A program made the position numbers and the translations under genes. Shown here one piece after another: positions 1 to 12,578 of a stretch of 23,613 nt of DNA (position 1 is its first letter; each line of letters opens with the position of its first letter). Source of the stretch: a virus; UHGV virus genome UHGV-0175648, one strand, 5' to 3'. The notes below the pieces were generated by a model. It was given only the letters and a program-made list of their open reading frames with translations, searched no databases and had not been told where the DNA came from.

Positions 1-990
1 TTATGTGGATGAAATGTGGATGCCTCCTTTTAACGGATTAAGTGAAATTGCATCCTGGAGGAAATCAGGAGCGAGGTGCGCATAGGTCATAGTTTGCTGG
101 ATCGTGGCGTGCCCCATAATTCGCTGGAGCGTAAGTATATTTCCTCCATTAATCATAAAGTGAGCAGCAAAGGTATGGCGTAGAACATGTACAGCCTGTC
201 CTTTTGGTAGGTCTGGCTTAACACTGCGAAGCACCTTGCGATATTCCTCATAATTGACGTCAAACAAAAGGCCGGATTTCTTTGTTTTGATCTCACTAAC
301 AACTTCATCAGAGACAGGAATAATTCGAACTTTTCCGTTTTTAGTTTTGTTAAACGTCACGCGATTATTGATGATGTGTTCCGCGCGTAGATTTTTCGCT
401 TCTCCCCATCTCGCCCCAGTACTGAGACAAAGTAGCGTAATCCGCCGGGCATCACCGCTTACTGCATCCAGCAATTTGGCGATTTCTTCCGTAGTGAGGT
501 ACGTCATTTCGGGTGATTTTCGTTTCAAAGAGGGGAGGGCGCGGAGTGGATTTTCTCCGTGAAATTCTCCGGCATTTGCCAGGAGTGTAAACATTCCTCC
601 GAGATCCGACTCATCACGCCGAACAGTAGACTCTTTTACTCCCAAAGATAAACGGGAGCTTCGATAAGCGGCCATGAAACGAGCATTAATCTGGCTAACC
701 CTTGGATCATTCATTTCTTTGATGATTTTTTTCAACCTGGTTAGAACGCCGTTAGCATATGGCTTATTGCGTCCACCCAATTCCCACCATAACGGAAGCA
801 GATCTGAGAGATGACGTTGCTCTGTTGGCTTTTCAAGCCATTCCTTATCGTGCATGTGGCTGAGAACATAACGCTCAAAGGCCACTGCATCTGCCTTTTT
901 CTTAAAAATCCGCTGAATCCGACGTCCACTTCGGCCACGCGGTCTAACATCCACTTTATACCGTCCACCATCGAGCGCTTTAATTGCCAT
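1..990 (-). CDS. int: Tyrosine recombinase, P2-type prophage integrase
   Basis: The ORF 1..1023 translation aligns along its length with P2 Int as I recall it (MAIKALDGGRYKVDVRP..., LCLSTGARWGEA, HVLRHTFAAHFMINGG, LQRIMGH, YAHLAPDFLQDAISLNPL). The start is placed at the internal ATG 988-990, which is preceded by GGAGGG about 7 nt upstream and matches the P2 Int N-terminus MAIK. The stop codon is bases 1-3. Confidence 0.93.
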   Translation of the reverse strand: MAIKALDGGRYKVDVRPRGRSGRRIQRIFKKKADAVAFERYVLSHMHDKEWLEKPTEQRHLSDLLPLWWELGGRNKPYANGVLTRLKKIIKEMNDPRVSQINARFMAAYRSSRLSLGVKESTVRRDESDLGGMFTLLANAGEFHGENPLRALPSLKRKSPEMTYLTTEEIAKLLDAVSGDARRITLLCLSTGARWGEAKNLRAEHIINNRVTFNKTKNGKVRIIPVSDEVVSEIKTKKSGLLFDVNYEEYRKVLRSVKPDLPKGQAVHVLRHTFAAHFMINGGNILTLQRIMGHATIQQTMTYAHLAPDFLQDAISLNPLKGGIHISST

Positions 991-1056
991 TGGCAAGCCC
1001 TCCGGTGAAACGAGGAAAGACATTTCCAGTTTGTAAAACGTAAGAATAATAAAGGG

Positions 1057-3745: not shown

Positions 3746-3945
3746 ACAAAAAGACCTGGTTTCGCGCATATATGTGGGCGCTGGTATGCGTCCTCGTCTC
3801 TCTCATTCTGTATGCAGGACTACTCCCCCGAATGATTTCATCAGACAGCTCCTTCCTGGTATTGCTGGGCATTTTCATTGCCATGCTGTACCCGGCAGGC
3901 GTTGTTCGCCTTTTCAGTAAGTACATCAAGGAAATCAAACAATGA
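3742..3945 (+). CDS. Small inner-membrane protein with two predicted TM helices (67 aa)
   Basis: Two hydrophobic stretches (WALVCVLVSLILYAGLL and FLVLLGIFIAMLYPAGVV). It is translationally coupled to the downstream SPFH gene. Confidence 0.6.
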   Translation: MNKKTWFRAYMWALVCVLVSLILYAGLLPRMISSDSSFLVLLGIFIAMLYPAGVVRLFSKYIKEIKQ

Positions 3946-4772
3946 AGAAATTCAAACTCTTTCAGATTCTCCCGCTTTTTGCCGCCATCCTGCTGGTTGG
4001 CTGCGATCGCGTTGAGCCAGGTAATGTGGGCATCAAAGTCAACAAGCTGGGCGACGACAAAGGCGTTGGCGAAGTGGTTGGCGTTGGCCGCTACTGGACT
4101 GGCTGGAATACCGAGGTTTACATCTTCCCGACCTTCAAACAAATGAAGACCTACGATGACCCGTTCAGCTTCCAGATGAGTGACGGCACAACCATCGGCT
4201 ATCACATCGGCGTGGCCTACAAGGTCGATCCATCCAAAGTTACCACAGTGTTTCAGACCTACCGCAAAGGCGTGGATGACATTACCGACACTGACCTGCG
4301 CCAGAAGATCGCCGACGCACTCAACCGACTGGCCAGCAAAATGACCACAGATAAATTCATCGACGGTGGCAAGTCTGAACTGCTGGATTCAGCACTTAAA
4401 GATATTCAGGAAGAGATGACCCCCATCGGCATTCAGGTCATGAGCCTCTCTTATGTCGGTAAACCGGAATATCCGCCAACCGTTATCGACAGCATTAACG
4501 CCAAAGTCACGGCAAACCAGAAGACCCTGCAACGCGAACAGGAAGTCAAGCAACGCGAAGCAGAAGCCAACATGTTGCGCGCAGAAGCTGCCGGACAGGC
4601 TGATGCCATTCGCACAAAAGCCCAGGCTGAAGCCGACGCCATTCGTTTACGCGGTGAAGCTCTGCGCCAGAATCCCGGCGTTATGGAGCTGGAAGCAATC
4701 AACAAATGGAACGGCACGCTACCGCAATACATGACCAGCAATACCGCTGTTCCGTTTGTTCCGGTGAAGTAA
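3942..4772 (+). CDS. SPFH/band-7 (stomatin/prohibitin/HflK-C-like) lipoprotein, predicted inner-membrane retained
   Basis: Lipoprotein signal with lipobox LLVGC followed by Asp at +2 (CDRVEPG), which is an inner-membrane retention signal in E. coli. An SPFH-like core is followed by an Ala/Glu/Gln/Arg-rich coiled-coil tail (QREQEVKQREAEANMLRAEAAGQADAIRTKAQAEADAIRLRGEALRQ). The ribosome-binding site is AAGGAAA. Confidence 0.8.
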   Translation: MKKFKLFQILPLFAAILLVGCDRVEPGNVGIKVNKLGDDKGVGEVVGVGRYWTGWNTEVYIFPTFKQMKTYDDPFSFQMSDGTTIGYHIGVAYKVDPSKVTTVFQTYRKGVDDITDTDLRQKIADALNRLASKMTTDKFIDGGKSELLDSALKDIQEEMTPIGIQVMSLSYVGKPEYPPTVIDSINAKVTANQKTLQREQEVKQREAEANMLRAEAAGQADAIRTKAQAEADAIRLRGEALRQNPGVMELEAINKWNGTLPQYMTSNTAVPFVPVK

Positions 4773-4803: not shown

Positions 4804-4934
4804 AGCAGTATCAGGATTTTTTAGTATGCCGTTCTCACAAAAAAACCGCTTGCCATGCCGCAATCAGTCAGGTTACATTTCCGCTGCACCTCATAAAACG
4901 GGTGCCGGGTTTCGCAGCCTGCTGACTACAAGAG

Positions 4935-4964
4935 CGCACAACCGCGCCAGCGGTTTTTTTGTGC
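4935..4964 (+). terminator. Rho-independent terminator-like hairpin with a T7 run
   Basis: CGCACAACCGCGCCAGCGGTTTTTTTGTGCG: the ACCGC/GCGGT stem is followed by seven T, and the outer arms CGCACAA/TTGTGCG are also complementary. Confidence 0.55.
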
Positions 4965-5139
4965 GTACTGTATTGCCACGTTTTTTTCGCGTCAGAATTA
5001 TGGCGGGGCGTACGGGGCCGACTTCGGTCGGGCCGGGATCTCTTGTAGCCGGTACTGCGAACCTCGTACGTCTCGCCACCCACAGTTTCGCAGCTCTGGA
5101 TGGTGAGTTTTCACAACTTACTACAAGAGGCCACATATC

Positions 5140-5370
5140 ATGGCAAACCGCAAACAGCACCGCACTATCGCGGAGCGTCGTCACATCCAGACTGAAATCA
5201 ACCGCAGACTTTCCCGCGCATTCCGCGTCGCTAAAATCATGCACATCAATATGCTGCATGAGCGTAGCTGCGAACTTTCAAACCTCTATTCATCCGCTGT
5301 TTTCAGCTATCTGGCGGATGATCTGCGCGAGCTTCAACAGCTCATCCAGCAGCAAAACAAACTCCATTAA
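5140..5370 (+). CDS. Hypothetical small basic protein (76 aa)
   Basis: ORF with an AAGAGG Shine-Dalgarno about 10 nt upstream. The N-terminus is Arg/Lys rich. No recognisable domain. Confidence 0.5.
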   Translation: MANRKQHRTIAERRHIQTEINRRLSRAFRVAKIMHINMLHERSCELSNLYSSAVFSYLADDLRELQQLIQQQNKLH

Positions 5371-5442
5371 TTCCTGTTCCGGGCCTTTCCTGCACCTTGC
5401 GGCGGGAGGCCTTCGCACATCTGTAACAAGAGGATTGCCGCA

Positions 5443-5808
5443 ATGATTCTCGCCAACGACTTTCTTGAATACCTGCTCAACACAGAACGTGATCTTGCCG
5501 CTCGCGTGCGTGATCGTTATGACATGTACCTGAAATCCCTGCCTGTACCGCAGCTCGCTGACGGAAAGATTGTTATTGATGGTCGCTACATGATTGACAG
5601 CCACGAGGGAAATTACAGGCTTTACCGCATTGAAGGTGGTACTCCGTCCGTTATTGGCATTTACCAGCGCCCATCCTCTGCAATCGTCGATGTGATTGCC
5701 GACAGCATCCGCATCACACATCGCCATGCCGACACAGAAGACACCGTGCTGGAAATTCAGCGGCTGGCTACAGTCTGCCGCGACACCCTGAATGGCATGA
5801 CGAAGTAA
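5443..5808 (+). CDS. Hypothetical protein (121 aa) immediately upstream of gene A
   Basis: ORF with an AAGAGGA Shine-Dalgarno 8 nt upstream. It occupies the position of P2 B/orf80-83; no P2 B-like sequence was recognised. Confidence 0.55.
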   Translation: MILANDFLEYLLNTERDLAARVRDRYDMYLKSLPVPQLADGKIVIDGRYMIDSHEGNYRLYRIEGGTPSVIGIYQRPSSAIVDVIADSIRITHRHADTEDTVLEIQRLATVCRDTLNGMTK

Positions 5809-5814
5809 ATCACT

Positions 5815-8637
5815 ATGACGGCAGAGTACATCAGGGACTGGCAACAACCGCGCCACGCAGTGGGGCGTGAAGGAACGGGGATCCCCGCTCCTGAATCCGC
5901 GCTTTCCTCCTGGCTGGATGCCTACCGGGCAGAGAACGAGCGCCGCCAGGAAATGGCTGATGCGGCGTTCTCCGCCACGCCGCTGGGCAACCTGATTAAT
6001 AAAAGCCTGGATGCACAGGAAAAACAGGACAAAACCATCACACTGGCAGGAGACGCCAGAAAACAGGCACGCGGCGCGGTGGATGAAGCCATGGCCTCGC
6101 TGCGCCTGCTGCCGTCCTATCTGCGCGATCCGCTTATTCGCCACCTCTCCTTCCTGCGCAAAAAACAGGAAGCCGATCGCCGGAAAGGCAAAAAGAGCTG
6201 GCAGGCTGAACGCTACGCGTGCGGAACCCTGCGCAAAATATTCGAACGTCTGGACCGCACCGACCACCACTGGCTGACACCGGCTTATCGCTCCCTTGCC
6301 GGACGCGAACGCCTGGATGATTTGCTTTACCTGCCGCAGCTCAACAAACACCAGATACAGACGCTGGCCACCATGACAGCGGCGATGTTCAGCAGCACCT
6401 TCGAAAAACTCTGCGATGGCTTTGGCGCGACTGATGGCGAGCTGACCATGGATGTAACGCTGAAGGCGTATCAGATGCTGGCCCGCATGGCGTTACACCT
6501 GCACGCCATGCCTCCGCATTATGACGCACTGACAACAGACAAAGACCGGAGGAACGAACCAGACACAGAACTGCTACCGGGCGCAATCCTTCGCCTGACC
6601 TGTGCGGAATGGTGGAAACGCAAACTGTGGCTGTTACGTTGCGAGTGGAGAGAAGAACAACTCCGCGCCGCCTGTCTGGTTTCCAGAAAAACATCGCCCT
6701 ATCTGAGCCAGGACGCGTTAAGCGAGTTTCGCGCACAGCGCGAGAAAACACGCGATTTCCTGAAAAGTTTCATGCTGGAAAATGAAGACGGGTTCACGAT
6801 TGATCTCGAGACGGTGTATTACGCGGGAGTAAGTAACCCGGTTCACCGTAAGGCAGAAATGATGGCCACCATGAAGGGACTGGAACTTCTGGCCGAAGCC
6901 CGTGGCGACAGAGCGGTGTTTCTGACCGTCACCTGCCCGTCAAAATACCACGCAACAACGGAGAACGGTCATCCGAACCCCAAATGGAACGGGGCCACCA
7001 TGCGCGACTCCAGCGATTACCTGGTTAACACGTTTTTTGCGGCGGTCCGCAAAAAACTGAACCGCGACGGCCTGCGCTGGTATGGCATCCGCACGGTGGA
7101 GCCTCACCATGACGGCACTGTGCACTGGCATATGATGGTCTTTGCACATCCGGACGAGATTGAAACCATCGTGTCCCACGTCTGCGATATTGCCATTCAG
7201 GAGGACCGCCACGAGCTGGGCGATGACATAACTCCGCGTTTTAAGGCGGAGTATGTCGACGGCTCAAAAGGCACACCAACCAGCTACATCGCCACCTACA
7301 TCGGAAAGAACCTGGACAGCCGCGCCGTGGATGGCATCGACCCGAAAACGGGCAAGCCACGCGTTGACCACGAAACCGGAAAATCAATGGCCGAGAGCGT
7401 GGAGCGCGCCATCGGTTGGGCACGCCTTCACCGGGTCCGCCAGTTCCAGTTCTTTGGCATCCCCTCCCGTCAGGTGTGGCGTGAACTCCGCCGCCTTGCC
7501 AGCCAGATGGCGCGCAACCCGGAAGGCCCGCAACGGCTGAAGGATGACGCAATGGATGCGGTACTCGCTGCCGCTGATGCCGGATGTTTTGCCACCTACA
7601 TAGAGAAACAGGGCGGCGTACTTGTTCCACGCAAAGACTACCTGATTCGTACCGCCTACGACCTCGCCGATGAGCTGAACGATTACGGCGAACAGAGCGT
7701 ACAGATTTACGGGATCTGGTCACCACTCATCGGGGAATCCTCCCGTGTGTGCACGCATCCGGATAACTGGAAGCTGGTAAGACGCAAACCGGAAGCGGAA
7801 GACAGCGCCCGCGAAAATGGTTTTGACCTTCAGGGCGGCCCTGCCGCCCCTTGGACTCGTGGCAATAACTGTCCCCGTGTACAGGAAACGAACAACAACG
7901 GGACAGAACAGCCGGAAGAACGGCCAGCACCGTGGCCGCAGCTCCCTGACGGCGTTGAAGTGAATGAATGGATGCGCTCACTGAAACGGCACGAACGCCG
8001 GGCGCTGATGCGTTCGCTGCGTGACAAACAGGCAAAAAACAGCAGTGATGAAATGCAGAGCTGGACACAGAGCCGCAAACAGCAGCGGCCTTTGCCTGAT
8101 AACCACGAATTACTCGCTAAAGAATGGCGGGAGTCTGCTGAATCTCTCGGCCTGCATATCGGTGAACAGCAGATGCAGCACCTGTTACGGGGCGGCAGTC
8201 TGTACGTTGACGGCAGCATCATTGCACCGCAGGGATTTGAAATTGTACGCAAACCGGATACCCGACCGGACAGCCGGATCACGCAGCTCTGGCAGCGCCT
8301 GAGCCGTAACCACGGCGTAAGCAGCACGGAGATCCGCCATAACCCGGTCGCCAGCTATCTGGAACAGCTGGGGGCATCAGACCCCGAAGCCGCCGCACGC
8401 CTGGCATCCACACTTCAGCAGGACCAGAACACCATGAAAACACCCGTTACCGTGCTTTCTGACATGCTGCGCGCCATCCGCGACGCAGAGCACGCACAGA
8501 GAATCAGTGAAACCACTGAACGCGCCCGCCGCAAAGCAGACCTGCTGCGGGGTGGCCTGACCAGTGGAAACAAAAAACAGACAGAAACGGGATTCACAAA
8601 TCCCGTAAATGAGCAAAAAACGCGCCGCGATATATGA
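5815..8637 (+). CDS. A: P2 gpA-family rolling-circle replication initiation endonuclease (940 aa)
   Basis: Contains the HUH-type metal-binding motif (EPHHDGTVHWHMMVF) and a catalytic tyrosine region (SYIATYIGKN) typical of P2/186 A proteins. It lies in the expected position after the early genes. The C-terminal roughly 300 aa is charged, low-complexity sequence. Confidence 0.92.
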   Translation: MTAEYIRDWQQPRHAVGREGTGIPAPESALSSWLDAYRAENERRQEMADAAFSATPLGNLINKSLDAQEKQDKTITLAGDARKQARGAVDEAMASLRLLPSYLRDPLIRHLSFLRKKQEADRRKGKKSWQAERYACGTLRKIFERLDRTDHHWLTPAYRSLAGRERLDDLLYLPQLNKHQIQTLATMTAAMFSSTFEKLCDGFGATDGELTMDVTLKAYQMLARMALHLHAMPPHYDALTTDKDRRNEPDTELLPGAILRLTCAEWWKRKLWLLRCEWREEQLRAACLVSRKTSPYLSQDALSEFRAQREKTRDFLKSFMLENEDGFTIDLETVYYAGVSNPVHRKAEMMATMKGLELLAEARGDRAVFLTVTCPSKYHATTENGHPNPKWNGATMRDSSDYLVNTFFAAVRKKLNRDGLRWYGIRTVEPHHDGTVHWHMMVFAHPDEIETIVSHVCDIAIQEDRHELGDDITPRFKAEYVDGSKGTPTSYIATYIGKNLDSRAVDGIDPKTGKPRVDHETGKSMAESVERAIGWARLHRVRQFQFFGIPSRQVWRELRRLASQMARNPEGPQRLKDDAMDAVLAAADAGCFATYIEKQGGVLVPRKDYLIRTAYDLADELNDYGEQSVQIYGIWSPLIGESSRVCTHPDNWKLVRRKPEAEDSARENGFDLQGGPAAPWTRGNNCPRVQETNNNGTEQPEERPAPWPQLPDGVEVNEWMRSLKRHERRALMRSLRDKQAKNSSDEMQSWTQSRKQQRPLPDNHELLAKEWRESAESLGLHIGEQQMQHLLRGGSLYVDGSIIAPQGFEIVRKPDTRPDSRITQLWQRLSRNHGVSSTEIRHNPVASYLEQLGASDPEAAARLASTLQQDQNTMKTPVTVLSDMLRAIRDAEHAQRISETTERARRKADLLRGGLTSGNKKQTETGFTNPVNEQKTRRDI

Positions 8638-8682
8638 AGCGCGCATAAAACAGGCAAAAACGGGATTTCAGAATCCCGTAAA
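8585..8682. promoter_or_regulatory. parC-like centromere/operator: two 25-bp direct repeats, each internally palindromic
   Basis: AAACGGGATTCACAAATCCCGTAAA at 8585-8609 and AAACGGGATTTCAGAATCCCGTAAA at 8658-8682, each containing ACGGGATT...AATCCCGT dyad symmetry. They sit immediately upstream of parM; the first lies inside the 3' end of gene A. Confidence 0.6.
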
Positions 8683-8713: not shown

Positions 8714-9673
8714 ATGAAAATTTGTATCGATGACGGCTCCACCAACATCAAGCTGGCATGGACTGAGAACGGCGAACGCCGCAACGCCATCAGCCCGAAC
8801 AGCTTCAAGTCGGAATGGTCTGCGCCGTTCGGTGGCACGCAGCCCGCGAACTACATGCTTGATGGCGTGCGCTATGGTTTTGATCCGGTCAGCGATCGCT
8901 TTGTCCAGACGACCGACACGCAATACCAGTACAGCGATGTGAATGTCATTGCCATTCATCACGCGCTGGTCAAATCAGGCATCACACCACAGGAAGTGGA
9001 TGTGGTTGTCACCCTGCCACTGAGCGAGTATTTCGACACAAACGCACAGCCGGACATGGCCAACATCAACCGCAAAAAAGCAAACGTCATGCGCCCGGTG
9101 GCGTACCAGAACGGAAAAGCATTCACTATCCGTAACGTACGGGTTATGCCTGAATCCATTCCGGCTGGTTTTAAAGCACTGGCTGACATGAGTCCGTTTG
9201 AATCCCTGCTGATTGTGGATTTAGGCGGAACCACGCTGGATGTGGCAAAGGTTCAGGGGCAACTGGCAGGTATCAGCCAGGTGTTTTGCGATCCACACGT
9301 AGGCGTTTCTCTGATGGCCAATGCCGTACTGTCGGTGATGGCCACTAACGGTATGCGCACCAGTCACCACATCGCCAATACCATTATCGAACATCGCCAT
9401 GATGAAGCCTGGCTGCGCCAGCACATCCACAATGACGCGCATTACGCCAGCCTGATGGCGGTTATTCGTGAAAAGGAAGAAACACTGAAACAACGCGTGA
9501 TCCGCGCGCTGGCGGGTTTTTCGGGTTACGGGCGGGTGATGGTTGTCGGTGGCGGGGCGGAGATTGTGGCACCCGCTATCCGCGAAGCCTGCGGAGTTAA
9601 TGCGACTTTCATCGCGGACGGGGTGCCACAGTTTGCTCTGGTTAATGGGCTGTACGCAATGGACAAGGAGTAA
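8714..9673 (+). CDS. parM: ParM/StbA-family actin-like partition ATPase
   Basis: 319 aa with strong similarity along the whole length to plasmid R1 ParM / R100 StbA as I recall it (MKICIDDGSTNIKLAW..., YSDVNVIAIHHAL, VMPESIPAG, LIVDLGGTTLD, GVSLM, VVGGGAE, LVNGLY). The ribosome-binding site is AAGGA. Confidence 0.85.
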   Translation: MKICIDDGSTNIKLAWTENGERRNAISPNSFKSEWSAPFGGTQPANYMLDGVRYGFDPVSDRFVQTTDTQYQYSDVNVIAIHHALVKSGITPQEVDVVVTLPLSEYFDTNAQPDMANINRKKANVMRPVAYQNGKAFTIRNVRVMPESIPAGFKALADMSPFESLLIVDLGGTTLDVAKVQGQLAGISQVFCDPHVGVSLMANAVLSVMATNGMRTSHHIANTIIEHRHDEAWLRQHIHNDAHYASLMAVIREKEETLKQRVIRALAGFSGYGRVMVVGGGAEIVAPAIREACGVNATFIADGVPQFALVNGLYAMDKE

Positions 9674-9677
9674 ACCA

Positions 9678-9989
9678 ATGACGACACCAACCAGACGGAT
9701 AAGTTTCTATCTGAAGCCCGCCGCCGTCAAGAACGAAGGCGAAGCATGCGCCTGGCTGGACAGCCTTACACCAGAAGCCCGCAAAAGCGGCCAACGCGTG
9801 GCTTTTCTGGCCGGGCTGGCACTACTGAAAATGAATCCGGCAGAGGCTTACCGACTGGCTGCATGGGTTGATGATGAGGCGTTATCAGTGACACAAACCA
9901 GAACAGAACGCCCCGCGTCACAGCCAGTATCAGCCGCACAGATAACCAGTCAGATGGCCGGAAATATCCGGGCGTTATTTCCCGAATAA
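9678..9989 (+). CDS. parR: ParR/StbB-like centromere-binding adaptor (103 aa)
   Basis: Immediately downstream of parM with an AAGGAG ribosome-binding site. The N-terminus parallels R1 ParR (RRISFYLKPAAV...WLDSLTPEARKSGQRVAFLAGLAL versus RRTIAFKLNPDV...TLDSIPQGERSRLNRAALTAGLAL, from memory). Confidence 0.72.
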   Translation: MTTPTRRISFYLKPAAVKNEGEACAWLDSLTPEARKSGQRVAFLAGLALLKMNPAEAYRLAAWVDDEALSVTQTRTERPASQPVSAAQITSQMAGNIRALFPE

Positions 9990-9994
9990 CACAA

Positions 9995-10018
9995 CATCAG
10001 GGCGCATCCGCCCTGATG
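9995..10018 (+). terminator. Stem-loop after parR (10-bp stem CATCAGGGCG/CGCCCTGATG, 4-nt loop)
   Basis: Perfect inverted repeat read directly from the sequence. The downstream T-tract is weak, so it may be a partial terminator or an operator. Confidence 0.4.
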
Positions 10019-10052: not shown

Positions 10053-10385
10053 ATGGAACACATTGACAGAGAAAAAGCGCAGCGACTGATTGAGCGGATG
10101 GAAGCGCTGGCGAAAGAAGAAAATGTCAACATCCAAAAAATAGCTGAATGTGGCCAGATAGTTCTTCGTCGTGAAAAAGATCTCAAACAACTGATGTCTG
10201 GCGAAACCAGCAAAACATGGACTTCAGGCGAGAAGACGGTTTATTGCAGTTTCTGCAATAAATCCCAGTACGAAGTCACAAAGGTGATTGCCGGACCGTC
10301 TGTTTACATCTGCAATGAGTGCGTGGATTTGTGCAATGAAATTATCAGGAGAGAAGTGACAGACAAAAAGGAAAAAAACGCATGA
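10053..10385 (+). CDS. Small protein with a C-terminal ClpX-type C4 zinc-binding domain (ZBD)
   Basis: Residues about 63-99 ([40 protein letters not shown]) are near-identical to the E. coli ClpX N-terminal zinc-binding domain as I recall it ([40 protein letters not shown]), with the same Cys spacing. The N-terminal 60 aa is unrelated and predicted helical. The ribosome-binding site is AAGGGGGA. Confidence 0.85.
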
Positions 10386-10696
10386 ACAGAAAACAAAAAC
10401 AAGAGTTGAAATACTTTTTACGTAAAGAAATTGCCAGGCTTGAAGATGCAGAATCACAATCATCAGAAATTCCGTTCGGAATGGATATCAACGACGCCCG
10501 TATGCTTCAGGCATACCGCATAGCTCAGGCTGCACTACAGGCAAAACCGTCAGATGGACTGGTTAGAGCAGTACATTTCTATGAACTGGTAAAACGTGAG
10601 AATCCCCCAGCCGAAACCGGAGCATGGAAAGACGCTGTTGACTGGGTGCTCAAAGAGGCTTGCCAGGCTGTAAACATTCGCATTAAAGGAGAGTGA
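10382..10696 (+). CDS. Hypothetical protein (104 aa), second gene of the ZBD operon
   Basis: Translationally coupled to the upstream gene (ATGA). No recognisable domain. Confidence 0.55.
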
Positions 10697-10697
10697 T

Positions 10698-11039
10698 ATG
10701 ACCACTATTACCAGAGAACAGGCACAGAAAATTATTGAAGCAGCCGATGAGGTTATTAGTGCGCTTGCCGGAACTAACGAGGATGTTCACCCTGGTAGCG
10801 ATAACATGCTACGTCTGTGGGATGACCTGAATGACCGTTACGCGCCGCCGGAAGTTGTGCGTGAGCTGGCACGGATTGCGCTGGCATCGCTGGAAGCAGA
10901 GCCAGTAGCATGGATGCATGTAAATAACGGCATCGGAATACCAGCAATAACAAGGAGTAAAGATGTTGCAGAGAGTTGGTTATCAAAAGGCTGGTATGTC
11001 CAACCCTTACATCTAGCCCAGCCTGCATCAAAGCTATAG
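10698..11039 (+). CDS. Hypothetical protein (113 aa), third gene of the ZBD operon
   Basis: Its start lies 1 nt after the upstream stop (TGATATG). It is followed by a terminator hairpin. Confidence 0.55.
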   Translation: MTTITREQAQKIIEAADEVISALAGTNEDVHPGSDNMLRLWDDLNDRYAPPEVVRELARIALASLEAEPVAWMHVNNGIGIPAITRSKDVAESWLSKGWYVQPLHLAQPASKL

Positions 11040-11050
11040 AAATGAGCCAA

Positions 11051-11077
11051 AACGCCCTCTTCCAGGGCGTTTATTTC
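11051..11077 (+). terminator. Rho-independent terminator closing the accessory operon
   Basis: AACGCCCT-CTTCC-AGGGCGTT hairpin followed by TATTTC. Confidence 0.55.
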
Positions 11078-11079
11078 AA

Positions 11080-11109
11080 TGCACAATAGTGCACAAATTT
11101 GCACAATTT
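11080..11109. repeat. Three direct TGCACAA repeats at 10-bp (one helical turn) spacing
   Basis: TGCACAAtagTGCACAAattTGCACAAttt read directly from the sequence. A fourth GTGCACAAAAAAA lies at about 11168. Confidence 0.8.
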
Positions 11110-11459
11110 TTTTGAACGACTTTTTACCCTTCCGGCCCGCATGGCGGCTGGATCCGTCAAGGATCCGTGCGTGCACAAAAAAACGCGCTTTTTCTGCGCG
11201 CAGGTGACGGGGGAACAGCCCGCGTTTCAGGGGGTAAATAGCATTCCCTGAACGATGTCGCAGAGACACAACAGAATGGCTGTATTTCTCACGCTGAGCG
11301 TGAAAAATACGTGAGGGATTCTGATTTGATGGGGTGAAAGGTAAGGCCGTCAAAATCGCACTGAGGCGGCGAAGAACATGCAGTCAACGCGGTGGGATTG
11401 CGTAAGAGTCTGACCGCCGATGATGGCAATAAGCAGAAAAGCGTCGTGAAATTATCTGA

Positions 11460-11500
11460 TTGATACAGGAGCTGGAGAGCCGGGGCATAAATTTTTTATG
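11460..11500. other. Candidate cos (cohesive end) region with a 13-bp-arm perfect palindrome
   Basis: Position is inferred: in P2 the Q stop lies a few tens of bp from the left cohesive end. GGAGAGCCGGGGCATAAAT (11464-11482) partially resembles the P2 cos 19-mer as I recall it (GGCGAGGCGGGGAAAGCAC). A perfect palindrome GCCGGGGCATAAA...TTTATGCCCCGGC spans 11469-11497. The exact cut sites were not determined. Confidence 0.35.
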
Positions 11501-11531
11501 CCCCGGCGAAGCAGCAGACAAGCGAAGCGCG

Positions 11532-12578
11532 TCAGGATGTGGGCTGGGTATCTAACAGTGCGTAAGGGTTAAAGCGGATCACCTCTTCGCCAAGCCAGTC
11601 ATTGATGTGCTTCATGGCCTCCATGACGGGCATCAGCTCGTTAATTGCGTAAACCCGCGCGGCCTTCTCCACATCACCAAACGCACTTTTTTCACCCGGC
11701 ATCGCCCCCATCAGTTGCGGCGGAACGCGGTGCGCAGCCAGCACATCATCACGGGATGCCGCCTTAACATTCATGAACTCATCCTTTGCGGTGATCTGCT
11801 GGAACGGCAAAATTTGCACCCCCTCTTTGCCCCCGTTGGGCGCATGAATGAGCACGTTTTTAAACGCACCGCCACCACGTGCACCCTGTAGCGTTTCTTT
11901 CAGGGAGTCCATGCTTTCGCGGTTTACCTGCGCTGCACCGATGTAGATGATGCACCCGGCGTGGGATCCGTTGTCGTAATACAGTTTTCTGAACATGTCC
12001 GCCGAATGAGACAGGCTGGCCGAGAGTAATGCGCCGAGATATTCCGGCATGCCGTAGATTTCCTGGTTAATGTCAGGATTCATCAGGTGGCACACTTTGC
12101 CAGGGCGAAACTGGAACGCATCCTTGCCATCCTGCACATACCACCATGATTCAAGATCGCTACCGCGTCGCATGTATTTTGCCAGGGCGTGCCGTAATTT
12201 AAGCGGTTCGCCGAGCATATTGCTTCGAAGCTCAAGGAATGCGTTACCGAACACAAACCAGTCCAGCGCCAGCGCCGAGAAATCCTGCCGGGAAAGCAGC
12301 GGGTGCGGGATGTAGCAACCGAGTAATACATTGCGCTTAAAGTAAAGCGCAGACTGATGCCAGGACGTTTGTCGGGCAGCTCTTGCCAGACCGTACCAGT
12401 CCACCGGGGTTTCATACCACCGCCCGTTATCAGCACAGTACATATTGTCCAGCAGGTCATGCCCGGTCAGGCGATAAGGACCATCAAATGTGAATGCACT
12501 GAGCGACGATTCTTTCCTGAGCGCATCAGCGAGATCAATGCGTGAACCCATGCGCACTTTTTTATTTTTTCTGCTCAT
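11532..12578 (-). CDS. Q: Portal (capsid portal vertex) protein
   Basis: 348 aa; the size, position and sequence are consistent with P2 gpQ. It is adjacent to and co-oriented with terminase large subunit P. Confidence 0.9.
   Translation of the reverse strand: MSRKNKKVRMGSRIDLADALRKESSLSAFTFDGPYRLTGHDLLDNMYCADNGRWYETPVDWYGLARAARQTSWHQSALYFKRNVLLGCYIPHPLLSRQDFSALALDWFVFGNAFLELRSNMLGEPLKLRHALAKYMRRGSDLESWWYVQDGKDAFQFRPGKVCHLMNPDINQEIYGMPEYLGALLSASLSHSADMFRKLYYDNGSHAGCIIYIGAAQVNRESMDSLKETLQGARGGGAFKNVLIHAPNGGKEGVQILPFQQITAKDEFMNVKAASRDDVLAAHRVPPQLMGAMPGEKSAFGDVEKAARVYAINELMPVMEAMKHINDWLGEEVIRFNPYALLDTQPTS

Follow-up and report, generated by a model that had tools for sequence, protein, structure and literature searches.

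A free-standing ClpX-type zinc-binding domain encoded by a P88-type prophage of Escherichia coli, a candidate decoy for ligands of the ClpX N-domain

Introduction

The ClpXP protease decides the fate of RpoS, of SOS and cell division proteins, of antitoxins, and of the phage proteins lambda O and MuA, and much of this choice is made via the N-terminal zinc domain of ClpX. The isolated zinc-binding domain (ZBD) is reported to inhibit degradation of lambda O and MuA in trans (Wojtyra et al. 2003). Phage proteins directed at host proteolysis include T4 PinA and T7 Gp4.5, which act against Lon, and lambda CIII, which acts against FtsH. The ClpX N-domain dimerizes independently and is required for FtsZ, MuA, and adaptors but not for the ssrA tag; of the adaptors, RssB delivers RpoS and SspB delivers ssrA-tagged proteins (PMC5415555). 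Lambda O is not degraded without the ZBD, and mutation of F16/I46 abolishes the enhancement of lambda O degradation by trigger factor; the F16/I46 region overlaps the lambda O site, and SspB and RssB bind the same hydrophobic region (PMC7804408). The anti-adaptors IraP, IraM, and IraD keep RssB from delivering RpoS to ClpXP (for example, bioRxiv 10.1101/2023.01.07.523045). Here, we describe a small gene (gene 1) in a 23,613-nucleotide stretch of viral DNA, UHGV virus genome UHGV-0175648 (the whole of which is referred to as the window), whose product ends in a ClpX-type ZBD.

The window is a P88-type E. coli prophage from the P2 family (Peduoviridae, Xuanwuvirus); P88 itself (NC_026014) and many E. 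coli chromosomes show an identical layout with 96 to 99% identity. In P2-like phages, the cos-proximal interval between gpA and gpQ is a cargo hotspot, occupied in P2 by tin and old (Rousset et al. 2022, PMC9122126). Many defense systems map to this site together with nondefense cargo, such as toxins and partition systems, and a putative partition system is present there in approximately one-quarter of P2-like phages (PMC9122126). Table S5 of that study includes "StbA + Plasmid_stab_B + zf-C4_ClpX + hypothetical..." among the hotspot contents, while the term "ClpX" is absent from its main text and from that of its 2026 follow-up. One defense system of the P2 hotspot, CmdTAC, needs ClpX via a C-terminal Ala-Ala degron (bioRxiv 10.1101/2024.02.24.581848).

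Gene 1 lies in this hotspot. We propose, with a probability of roughly 45%, that it is a self-sufficient, single-gene cargo of temperate enterobacterial phages, and that its product, which imitates the ClpX N-terminal ZBD as a free-standing protein, acts as a selective decoy for N-domain ligands.

Gene 1 encodes a ClpX-type ZBD behind a helical N-domain

The gene and its parts are as follows.

10053..10385, plus strand: gene 1; ATG start, 110 amino acids, with a helical hairpin at the N terminus, then a linker and a ClpX-type ZBD; phrog_6797
10053..10196, plus strand: gene 1 N-domain, residues 1 to 48; two predicted helices, 6 to 22 and 27 to 48 (AlphaFold)
10197..10238, plus strand: gene 1 linker, residues 49 to 62; low confidence, with a disordered stretch at 53 to 59 in the model; length varies among homologues
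10239..10358, plus strand: gene 1 ZBD core, residues 63 to 102; C65/C68/C87/C90

Residues 64 to 99 of the gene 1 product match Pfam zf-C4_ClpX (PF06689; E value, 5.8e−18; 64.9 bits versus a cutoff of 27), and a phmmer search of the PDB returned the E. coli ClpX ZBD as the best match (1OVX, E value of 9e−20; 2DS5, E value of 3e−19). C65, C68, C87, and C90 are arranged as CxxC-x18-CxxC, which is the spacing of ClpX, and all four are invariant in a 15-sequence alignment (A1) that includes the ClpX N terminus. An earlier reading of the locus, made from sequence only, had described a free-standing C4 finger with ClpX cysteine spacing, nearly identical to that of the host protein and fused to an unrelated helical N terminus. 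Formal alignment upholds the spacing, and the two helices ahead of the ZBD uphold the fusion. The similarity is far beyond chance, but "nearly identical" proved slightly generous: gene 1 residues 63 to 102 share 31 of 40 positions with E. coli ClpX 13 to 52 (counted from Met1), and a wider comparison gave 32 of 47. The nine core differences, from ClpX to gene 1, are L13V, G19N, H23Y, R26T, L28V, D38N, D46E, E50R, and I52V.

AlphaFold modeled the product with a mean predicted local distance difference test (pLDDT) score of 80.5, rising to 83 to 91 in the ZBD. This part superposes on crystal chains 2DS5, 2DS6, 2DS7, and 2DS8 with root mean square deviations of 0.6 to 1.0 Å at 74 to 79% identity; in the Foldseek comparison with 2DS5_A, the deviation was 0.7 Å over 40 columns, with 78% identity and a target-normalized template modeling score of 0.88. 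The model thus bears out the expected ClpX-like fold. The ClpX pocket residues F16 and I46 (literature numbering) are kept as F67 and I97, of which F67 is invariant in the alignment and I97 is present in at least 90% of the aligned sequences, with V in phage D6. The hydrophobic positions of the ZBD helix are all retained. Five natural alleles (L099 and L105 to L108) carry Y85C, corresponding to ClpX Y34 in the literature numbering, so that SVYICNEC reads SVCICNEC.

The product is not a full ClpX, as it is only 110 amino acids long and scored 50 bits against TIGR00382 (ClpX; cutoff, 371), with only profile positions 6 to 54 aligned; it lacks the AAA+ module and the ClpP-binding loops. When residues 1 to 58 were used to query 1.84 billion representative proteins for the N-domain, 11 matches were obtained. 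The divergent matches inspected (P0123 and P0126) likewise combine the N-hairpin with a ZBD, and a 1,212-amino-acid protein with six matched stretches (P0124) is probably a coiled-coil artifact. Reuse of the N-domain as a module in other proteins was ruled out by these results; the fusion of N-hairpin and ZBD looks like a fixed unit, with an N-domain specific to the gene 1 family.

Capture from clpX was old, and both folded domains are under selection

Over 47 aligned codons, gene 1 and E. coli clpX share 62% nucleotide identity, and the same codon is used at 12 of the 32 conserved residues. Megablast searches of 5,426 complete E. coli genomes with gene 1 matched 112 of them, and the matches were all prophage copies and never clpX. 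Capture from clpX was therefore old, and a recent capture from the host gene was ruled out by the low identity, the scrambled synonymous sites, and the missing clpX match.

Ratios of nonsynonymous to synonymous substitution rates (dN/dS) were estimated from 49 gene 1 sequences (29 distinct DNA sequences and 26 distinct proteins) and were ∼0.28 for the N-domain, ∼0.30 for the ZBD, and ∼0.72 for the linker. Both folded parts are therefore maintained by purifying selection. The ZBD of every divergent member is nearer to E. coli ClpX (28 to 35 of 40 residues identical) than to the ZBD of the window (25 to 32 of 40), while the N-domains of these members have drifted to 11 to 27 of 48 residues identical to the window N-domain. 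From these alignments, each gene 1 lineage seems to be held near the host ClpX sequence, and such a pattern, with ZBDs nearer to ClpX than to that of the window beside drifted N-domains, fits mimicry.

Gene 1 occurs in several phage backbones

Immediately upstream of gene 1 the window carries a partition module and a hairpin.

8714..9673, plus strand: ParM; type II partition module, directly upstream of gene 1 (module 8714..9989)
9675..9989, plus strand: ParR/StbB-like; second gene of the type II partition module
9995..10018: hairpin between parR and gene 1; perfect 10-bp, GC-rich stem, −18.4 kcal/mol, z = −6.6; no U-tract on the plus strand

Close relatives of gene 1 (90 to 98% identical) were identified in 41 viral contigs. 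In 39 of these, the gene lies directly behind parM-parR with a constant gap of 66 nt; one contig is cut just upstream, and one has 69 nt. Across the 5,426 E. coli genomes, parMR is present in 740 to 1,307 and gene 1 in 112 (∼2%). Several different cargoes can thus follow parMR, of which gene 1 is one. That it is an obligatory part of ParMR was ruled out by this difference in frequency and by homologues (P0019 and P0016) without ParM or ParR. The 63 nt that separate parR from gene 1 contain no sigma-70-like promoter, so transcription probably reads through into gene 1 from parMR, perhaps at a reduced level.

Distant members of the family (36 to 50% identical) occupy the same hotspot of other P2-like prophages without ParM/ParR. 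In Salmonella P2-like prophages, the homologue stands alone and is followed by an ogr-like gene on the opposite strand; in another E. coli prophage, the next genes are DUF7446 and Ead_Ea22. The homologue of one distant P2-like phage (36% identical; L126 4825-6372) has as neighbors a gene for a Doc-like toxin (phrog_577), an upstream gene for a putative antitoxin, and what is left of a parR gene. As ClpXP degrades the P1 antitoxin Phd, this pairing may be of interest.

Full-length homologues with ∼50% identity were also found in the phage-plasmids D6 (P1-like), PhiR41_1, and CMS-2020a (both ∼108 kb), as well as in ∼95 nonmobilizable plasmids of 87 to 113 kb from Escherichia, Shigella, and Salmonella. 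These copies lie within long runs of ead/Ea22-like, Eaa, DUF551, DUF4752, and DUF4406 genes. Within a collection of 50,697 records, no lambdoid phage carried a full-length copy of gene 1. The last gene of the Ea22-type array around the ZBD gene in the ∼108-kb phage-plasmids encodes a UmuD-like S24 peptidase (L144 8820-9209; L145 6810-7199); UmuD tethers UmuD′ to ClpX via the N-domain.

ZBD proteins of other kinds were encountered in these searches. Full-length ClpX (∼425 to 434 amino acids) is encoded by viral contigs of 24 to 87 kb (L129, L130, L132, L133, L135, and L136). L128, L131, and L134 encode further short ZBD proteins that are free-standing too but carry other extra domains. Proteins consisting of a ZBD without the rest of ClpX have therefore arisen more than once in phages. 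Several apparently standalone small ZBD matches in the protein search are truncated clpX fragments, and the scan of species-representative genomes was dominated by ordinary clpX genes (L006, for example, is clpP-clpX).

Genes 2 and 3 belong to a mosaic array

Downstream of gene 1 are two further small genes and a hairpin.

10382..10696, plus strand: gene 2; 104 amino acids; phrog_26213/660/250, families of unknown function
10698..11039, plus strand: gene 3; 113 amino acids; phrog_60/660, families of unknown function
11039..11077, plus strand: terminator-like hairpin just after gene 3; −14.8 kcal/mol, z = −3.4, then UUUAUUUC

Gene 1 had been read as the head of a three-gene accessory operon, translationally coupled to the next two genes. 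The close spacing of the genes is real: the gene 1 stop codon overlaps the gene 2 start codon (ATGA, 10382-10385) and a single base separates the gene 2 stop from the gene 3 start (TGAtATG). As a unit, the operon does not hold. Gene 1 is constant and some of its divergent homologues stand alone, whereas gene 2 follows it in only ∼26 of the 41 related viral contigs, and in six of these only the first 67 residues match. The slot of gene 2 in the remaining contigs is filled by unrelated genes, encoding either 196 and 174 or 118 and 87 amino acids, that again overlap the gene 1 stop. Full-length gene 3 was identified in none of the 41. Only the chromosome of E. coli CREC-591 has the full set, with an additional 69-amino-acid open reading frame between genes 2 and 3 and a gene 3 equivalent labeled a truncated pseudogene by the annotation pipeline PGAP. 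A conserved three-gene system was thus ruled out.

Segments of genes 2 and 3 recur in other combinations. The 3′ part of gene 2 shares ∼90% nucleotide identity with unrelated coliphages, the C-terminal half of gene 3 (residues 55 to 113) recurs in this locus as the tail of other last genes, and P88 has the final eight residues of gene 3 fused straight onto gene 2. Part of gene 3 is Eaa/DUF551-like, and parts of both genes match, at the nucleotide level, coliphage genes annotated Eaa, Ea22, or PF04448; searches of Pfam with genes 2 and 3 gave no Ead_Ea22 or DUF551 match. A junction, AAAGGAGAGTGA-N-ATGACCAC, is common to this array and to the Ea22/ZBD junction of PhiR41_1; several gene ends at this locus read ...IKGE followed by the stop; and gene 3 and the gene 1 homologues start alike (MTTIT-REQAQ and MTTSHSAIT-QEKAF). 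The shared junctions and the IKGE ends look like recombination linkers between cassettes. Judged from these comparisons, genes 1 to 3 are a mosaic cassette array that recombines at gene boundaries and not a coadapted operon, and genes 2 and 3 are interchangeable neighbors within an Ea22-type array rather than partners of gene 1. At nucleotide level, the gene 2/gene 3 junction at 10688-10705 (AAAGGAGAGTGAtATGACCAC) almost equals the junction of the Ea22 and ZBD genes in PhiR41_1 (L144 4960-5000; AAAGGAGAGTGAgATGACCAC).

The GC content is 43% in gene 1, 45% in gene 2 (41 to 45% across genes 1 and 2), and 49% in gene 3, compared with 54% for the window and 55 to 58% for neighboring genes. The AT-richer patch that had been taken to fit acquired cargo is therefore present, and it is located in the gpA-gpQ hotspot. 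A terminator had also been placed at the end of the array; the hairpin at 11039-11077 is real, but it failed the stricter T-run rule of a consensus terminator scan.

A proposed decoy role in capturing ClpX N-domain ligands

Under the proposed mechanism, the gene 1 ZBD would fold and dimerize like the ClpX domain, and the dimer would present a ClpX-like hydrophobic pocket. This pocket could bind peptides that dock on ClpX, among them adaptor tails (for example, those of SspB and RssB) and substrates that depend on the N-domain, such as those of the lambda O, MuA, and FtsZ type. As the product has no AAA+ ring, ligands held by it would be kept away from ClpXP. The result would be a selective, anti-adaptor-like inhibition of N-domain-dependent proteolysis and remodeling, while ssrA-type degrons would still be recognized directly. 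The helical N-domain particular to this family would probably contribute oligomerization or a second contact. Because C-terminal degrons of the ssrA type bypass the N-domain, a free ZBD would affect only substrates and adaptors that depend on the N-domain and not ClpXP in general. The Ala-Ala degron class used by CmdTAC is likewise independent of the ClpX N-domain, and CmdTAC is an example of why gene 1 could be no general ClpXP inhibitor.

This proposal builds on the domain identity, the fold, the pocket residues, the purifying selection, the solo occurrence, and the mobility of gene 1 between phage backbones. Given the lack of a conserved partner gene and the spread over three unrelated backbones, a universal host target is likely. 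Dimerization, binding of ligands, an effect on ClpXP, and a benefit to phage or lysogen would be expected of a decoy.

Several points weigh against a decoy. The N-domain, although as constrained as the ZBD, would be left without a task in a pure decoy. The star-like pattern of similarity, with ClpX at its center, may only mean that ClpX itself is near the ancestral sequence, and as the fold core, dimer interface, and ligand pocket overlap within 40 residues, conservation cannot separate ligand binding from folding or dimerizing. Some natural alleles carry Y85C inside the ZBD. Furthermore, no known defense or anti-defense model in PADLOC-DB was matched.

An unlikely alternative is that gene 1 has nothing to do with ClpXP and that its ZBD is a compact, zinc-stabilized dimerization or peptide-binding unit in a module for plasmid-like maintenance or early regulation. 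The invariable position of the close E. coli family directly behind parMR, with no promoter between, would suit such a role, as would the presence of other homologues in phage-plasmids but not in lambdoid phages and the one divergent locus that adjoins a Doc/antitoxin pair and a parR remnant. Set against this are the much higher frequency of parMR than of gene 1 and the two homologues without ParM/ParR, both given above; moreover, a mere dimerization unit would need no 70 to 88% identity to ClpX while the N-domains fell to 23 to 56%.

The role left open for the N-domain in a decoy is filled if gene 1 is an adaptor or hijacker, with the N-domain binding a specific phage or host protein and the ZBD joining the ClpX hexamer, for example through mixed dimers, to deliver or remodel the bound protein. 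The fixed two-domain architecture with near-equal constraint on its halves (dN/dS of 0.28 and 0.30), the flexible linker, which gives a layout like that of tethering adaptors, and the fully retained hydrophobic positions of the ZBD helix, which make mixed dimers conceivable, all agree with it. We nevertheless consider it improbable, as no candidate cargo is genetically linked at the loci compared and the N-domain diverges rapidly between lineages (11 to 27 of 48), against one conserved host target. ClpX ZBD dimers are also described as very stable, so subunit exchange may be slow.

Superinfection exclusion, which overlaps the decoy in mechanism, is equally improbable. Here, a decoy made by the lysogen would block phages that need the ClpX N-domain (Mu type), or genes 1 to 3 would be a new defense system. 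The site is one where tin, old, and many defense systems map (PMC9122126), the hotspot table of the same paper includes this gene content, and the patch is AT-rich cargo; the hotspot also holds nondefense cargo, however, namely partition systems and toxins. PADLOC-DB gave no match for genes 1 and 3 and only a marginal one for gene 2 (E = 0.008), and a known defense system was ruled out, as no match was credible. The three genes are not inherited together, and the phage-plasmid copies sit in ordinary Ea22-type early arrays, not in defense islands.

Finally, that gene 1 is a functionless, decaying fragment of a captured clpX is very hard to sustain, for although it is short, covers only the first ∼50 ClpX residues, and has many database matches that are truncated clpX fragments, 49 sequences, encoding 26 distinct proteins, keep the frame intact, both domains show a dN/dS of ∼0.3, and the ZBD is fused to a specific N-domain and spread across three phage backbones.

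Annotation and significance of the family

The module had been put forward as undescribed. In name this is not so, as the family is already in RefSeq ("ClpX C4-type zinc finger protein"), in PHROGs (phrog_6797, of unknown function), and in Table S5 of PMC9122126, but the literature searched contained no functional study of a phage-encoded free ZBD. Older records call gene 1 a "carboxylate--amine ligase" (NC_026014, P88 gp19; NC_050154, D6 gp034), an annotation error propagated through many entries.

With the operon framing gone and the evidence so far being resemblance, gene 1 is less striking than when first read, but the decoy is cheap to test, ClpXP assays being well established. Copies of this mobile ZBD are present in ∼2% of complete E. 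coli genomes (112 of 5,426) and in ∼100 phage-plasmids. From its sequence, gene 1 could plausibly join the accessory proteins by which phages interfere with proteolysis in the host, in its case through imitation of the docking domain of the protease itself. It is possible, if on balance somewhat doubtful, that phages and phage-plasmids spread a mimic of the ClpX docking domain which reprograms the choices of ClpXP by titrating SspB, RssB, UmuD-type tethers, or N-domain substrates. Were this so, it could alter stress responses, SOS mutagenesis, the turnover of antitoxins, or the growth of rival phages that depend on ClpX, and prophages might have a new route to change host physiology or to compete with other phages. 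The gene 1 product would then be the first viral decoy to copy an AAA+ protease's own substrate-selection domain, and a simple natural tool to separate N-domain-dependent from N-domain-independent proteolysis. Should the decoy reading fail, the family would still be an unexplained, selected fusion of a host-derived and a phage-only domain.

Other features of the window

The remaining landmarks of the prophage are the following.

1..1023, minus strand: integrase
5815..8637, plus strand: gpA replication endonuclease; left border of the P2-type cargo hotspot
11532..12578, minus strand: portal protein gpQ; right border of the hotspot, with terminase and capsid genes beyond

Genes 1 to 3 are placed between gpA and the portal gene, right behind ParM/ParR, and thus in the gpA-gpQ hotspot. 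A CI-like repressor and a Cox-like gene are also encoded in the window, after the integrase gene. The ∼490 bp between gene 3 and the portal gene contain no convincing gene, and as the P2 cos sequence was not found in 11040-11531, no exact cos site is claimed. Just past the gene 3 hairpin, this cos-proximal noncoding stretch has three direct copies of TGCACAA at 11081-11108 (GCACAAtagTGCACAAatTTGCACAAttttttt). Near-identical inverted repeats of 20 nt (8587-8606 and 8660-8679; ACGGGATT..AATCCCGT) lie on either side of the gpA end, shortly before parM, and could be candidate ParR-binding (parC-like) or origin-related sites.

In the early region, two Rfam families were matched above their gathering scores, the Hfq-binding RNA isrK (4886-4960, plus strand; 67 bits) and the C4 antisense RNA (4996-5083; 81 bits). 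Both matches fall within a 206-amino-acid open reading frame (4826-5446), itself a weak match to the Ash family. The arrangement resembles an immunity RNA module of the P1/P7 type, here among the early genes of a P2-like prophage. The early operon also encodes a 276-amino-acid SPFH/Band 7 protein (3942-4772, plus strand; Pfam E value, 7.5e−31), and the same gene is present in a related prophage (L141).

Comparison with known systems

The gene 1 ZBD shares with that of E. coli ClpX the C4 spacing, 31 of 40 core residues, a superposition at ∼0.7 Å, and the F16/I46 pocket residues. It differs in being C-terminal, behind a phage-specific two-helix domain and a linker, in having no AAA+ ring, and in being encoded by phages and phage-plasmids.

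If the decoy reading holds, gene 1 would resemble the Ira anti-adaptors in selectively protecting adaptor-delivered ClpXP substrates while leaving the protease itself unpoisoned. The Ira proteins bind the adaptor via their own unrelated folds, whereas gene 1 would copy the docking domain of the protease, and there is no sequence relationship between them. PinA, CIII, and Gp4.5 are, like gene 1, small phage accessory proteins aimed at host proteolysis; none of the three is known to copy a protease domain or to target the ClpX N-domain.

With the cargo of the P2 gpA-gpQ site (tin, old, retrons, restriction enzymes, CmdTAC, and partition systems), gene 1 has in common the locus, the behavior of variable cargo, and the AT-rich composition. 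Unlike that cargo, it matches no defense model and is also found outside the hotspot, in the early arrays of phage-plasmids. Those arrays of Ead, Ea22, Eaa, and DUF551 genes, known from lambdoid phages and phage-plasmids, resemble the locus described here in their small, codirectional open reading frames, overlapping stop and start codons, and shared junctions and N-terminal starts, and the neighbors of gene 1 homologues are annotated Ea22, Eaa, DUF551, or DUF4752. The locus differs from them in that genes 2 and 3 lack a Pfam Ead_Ea22 or DUF551 match, and in that gene 1 is the sole member with a recognizable host-derived domain.

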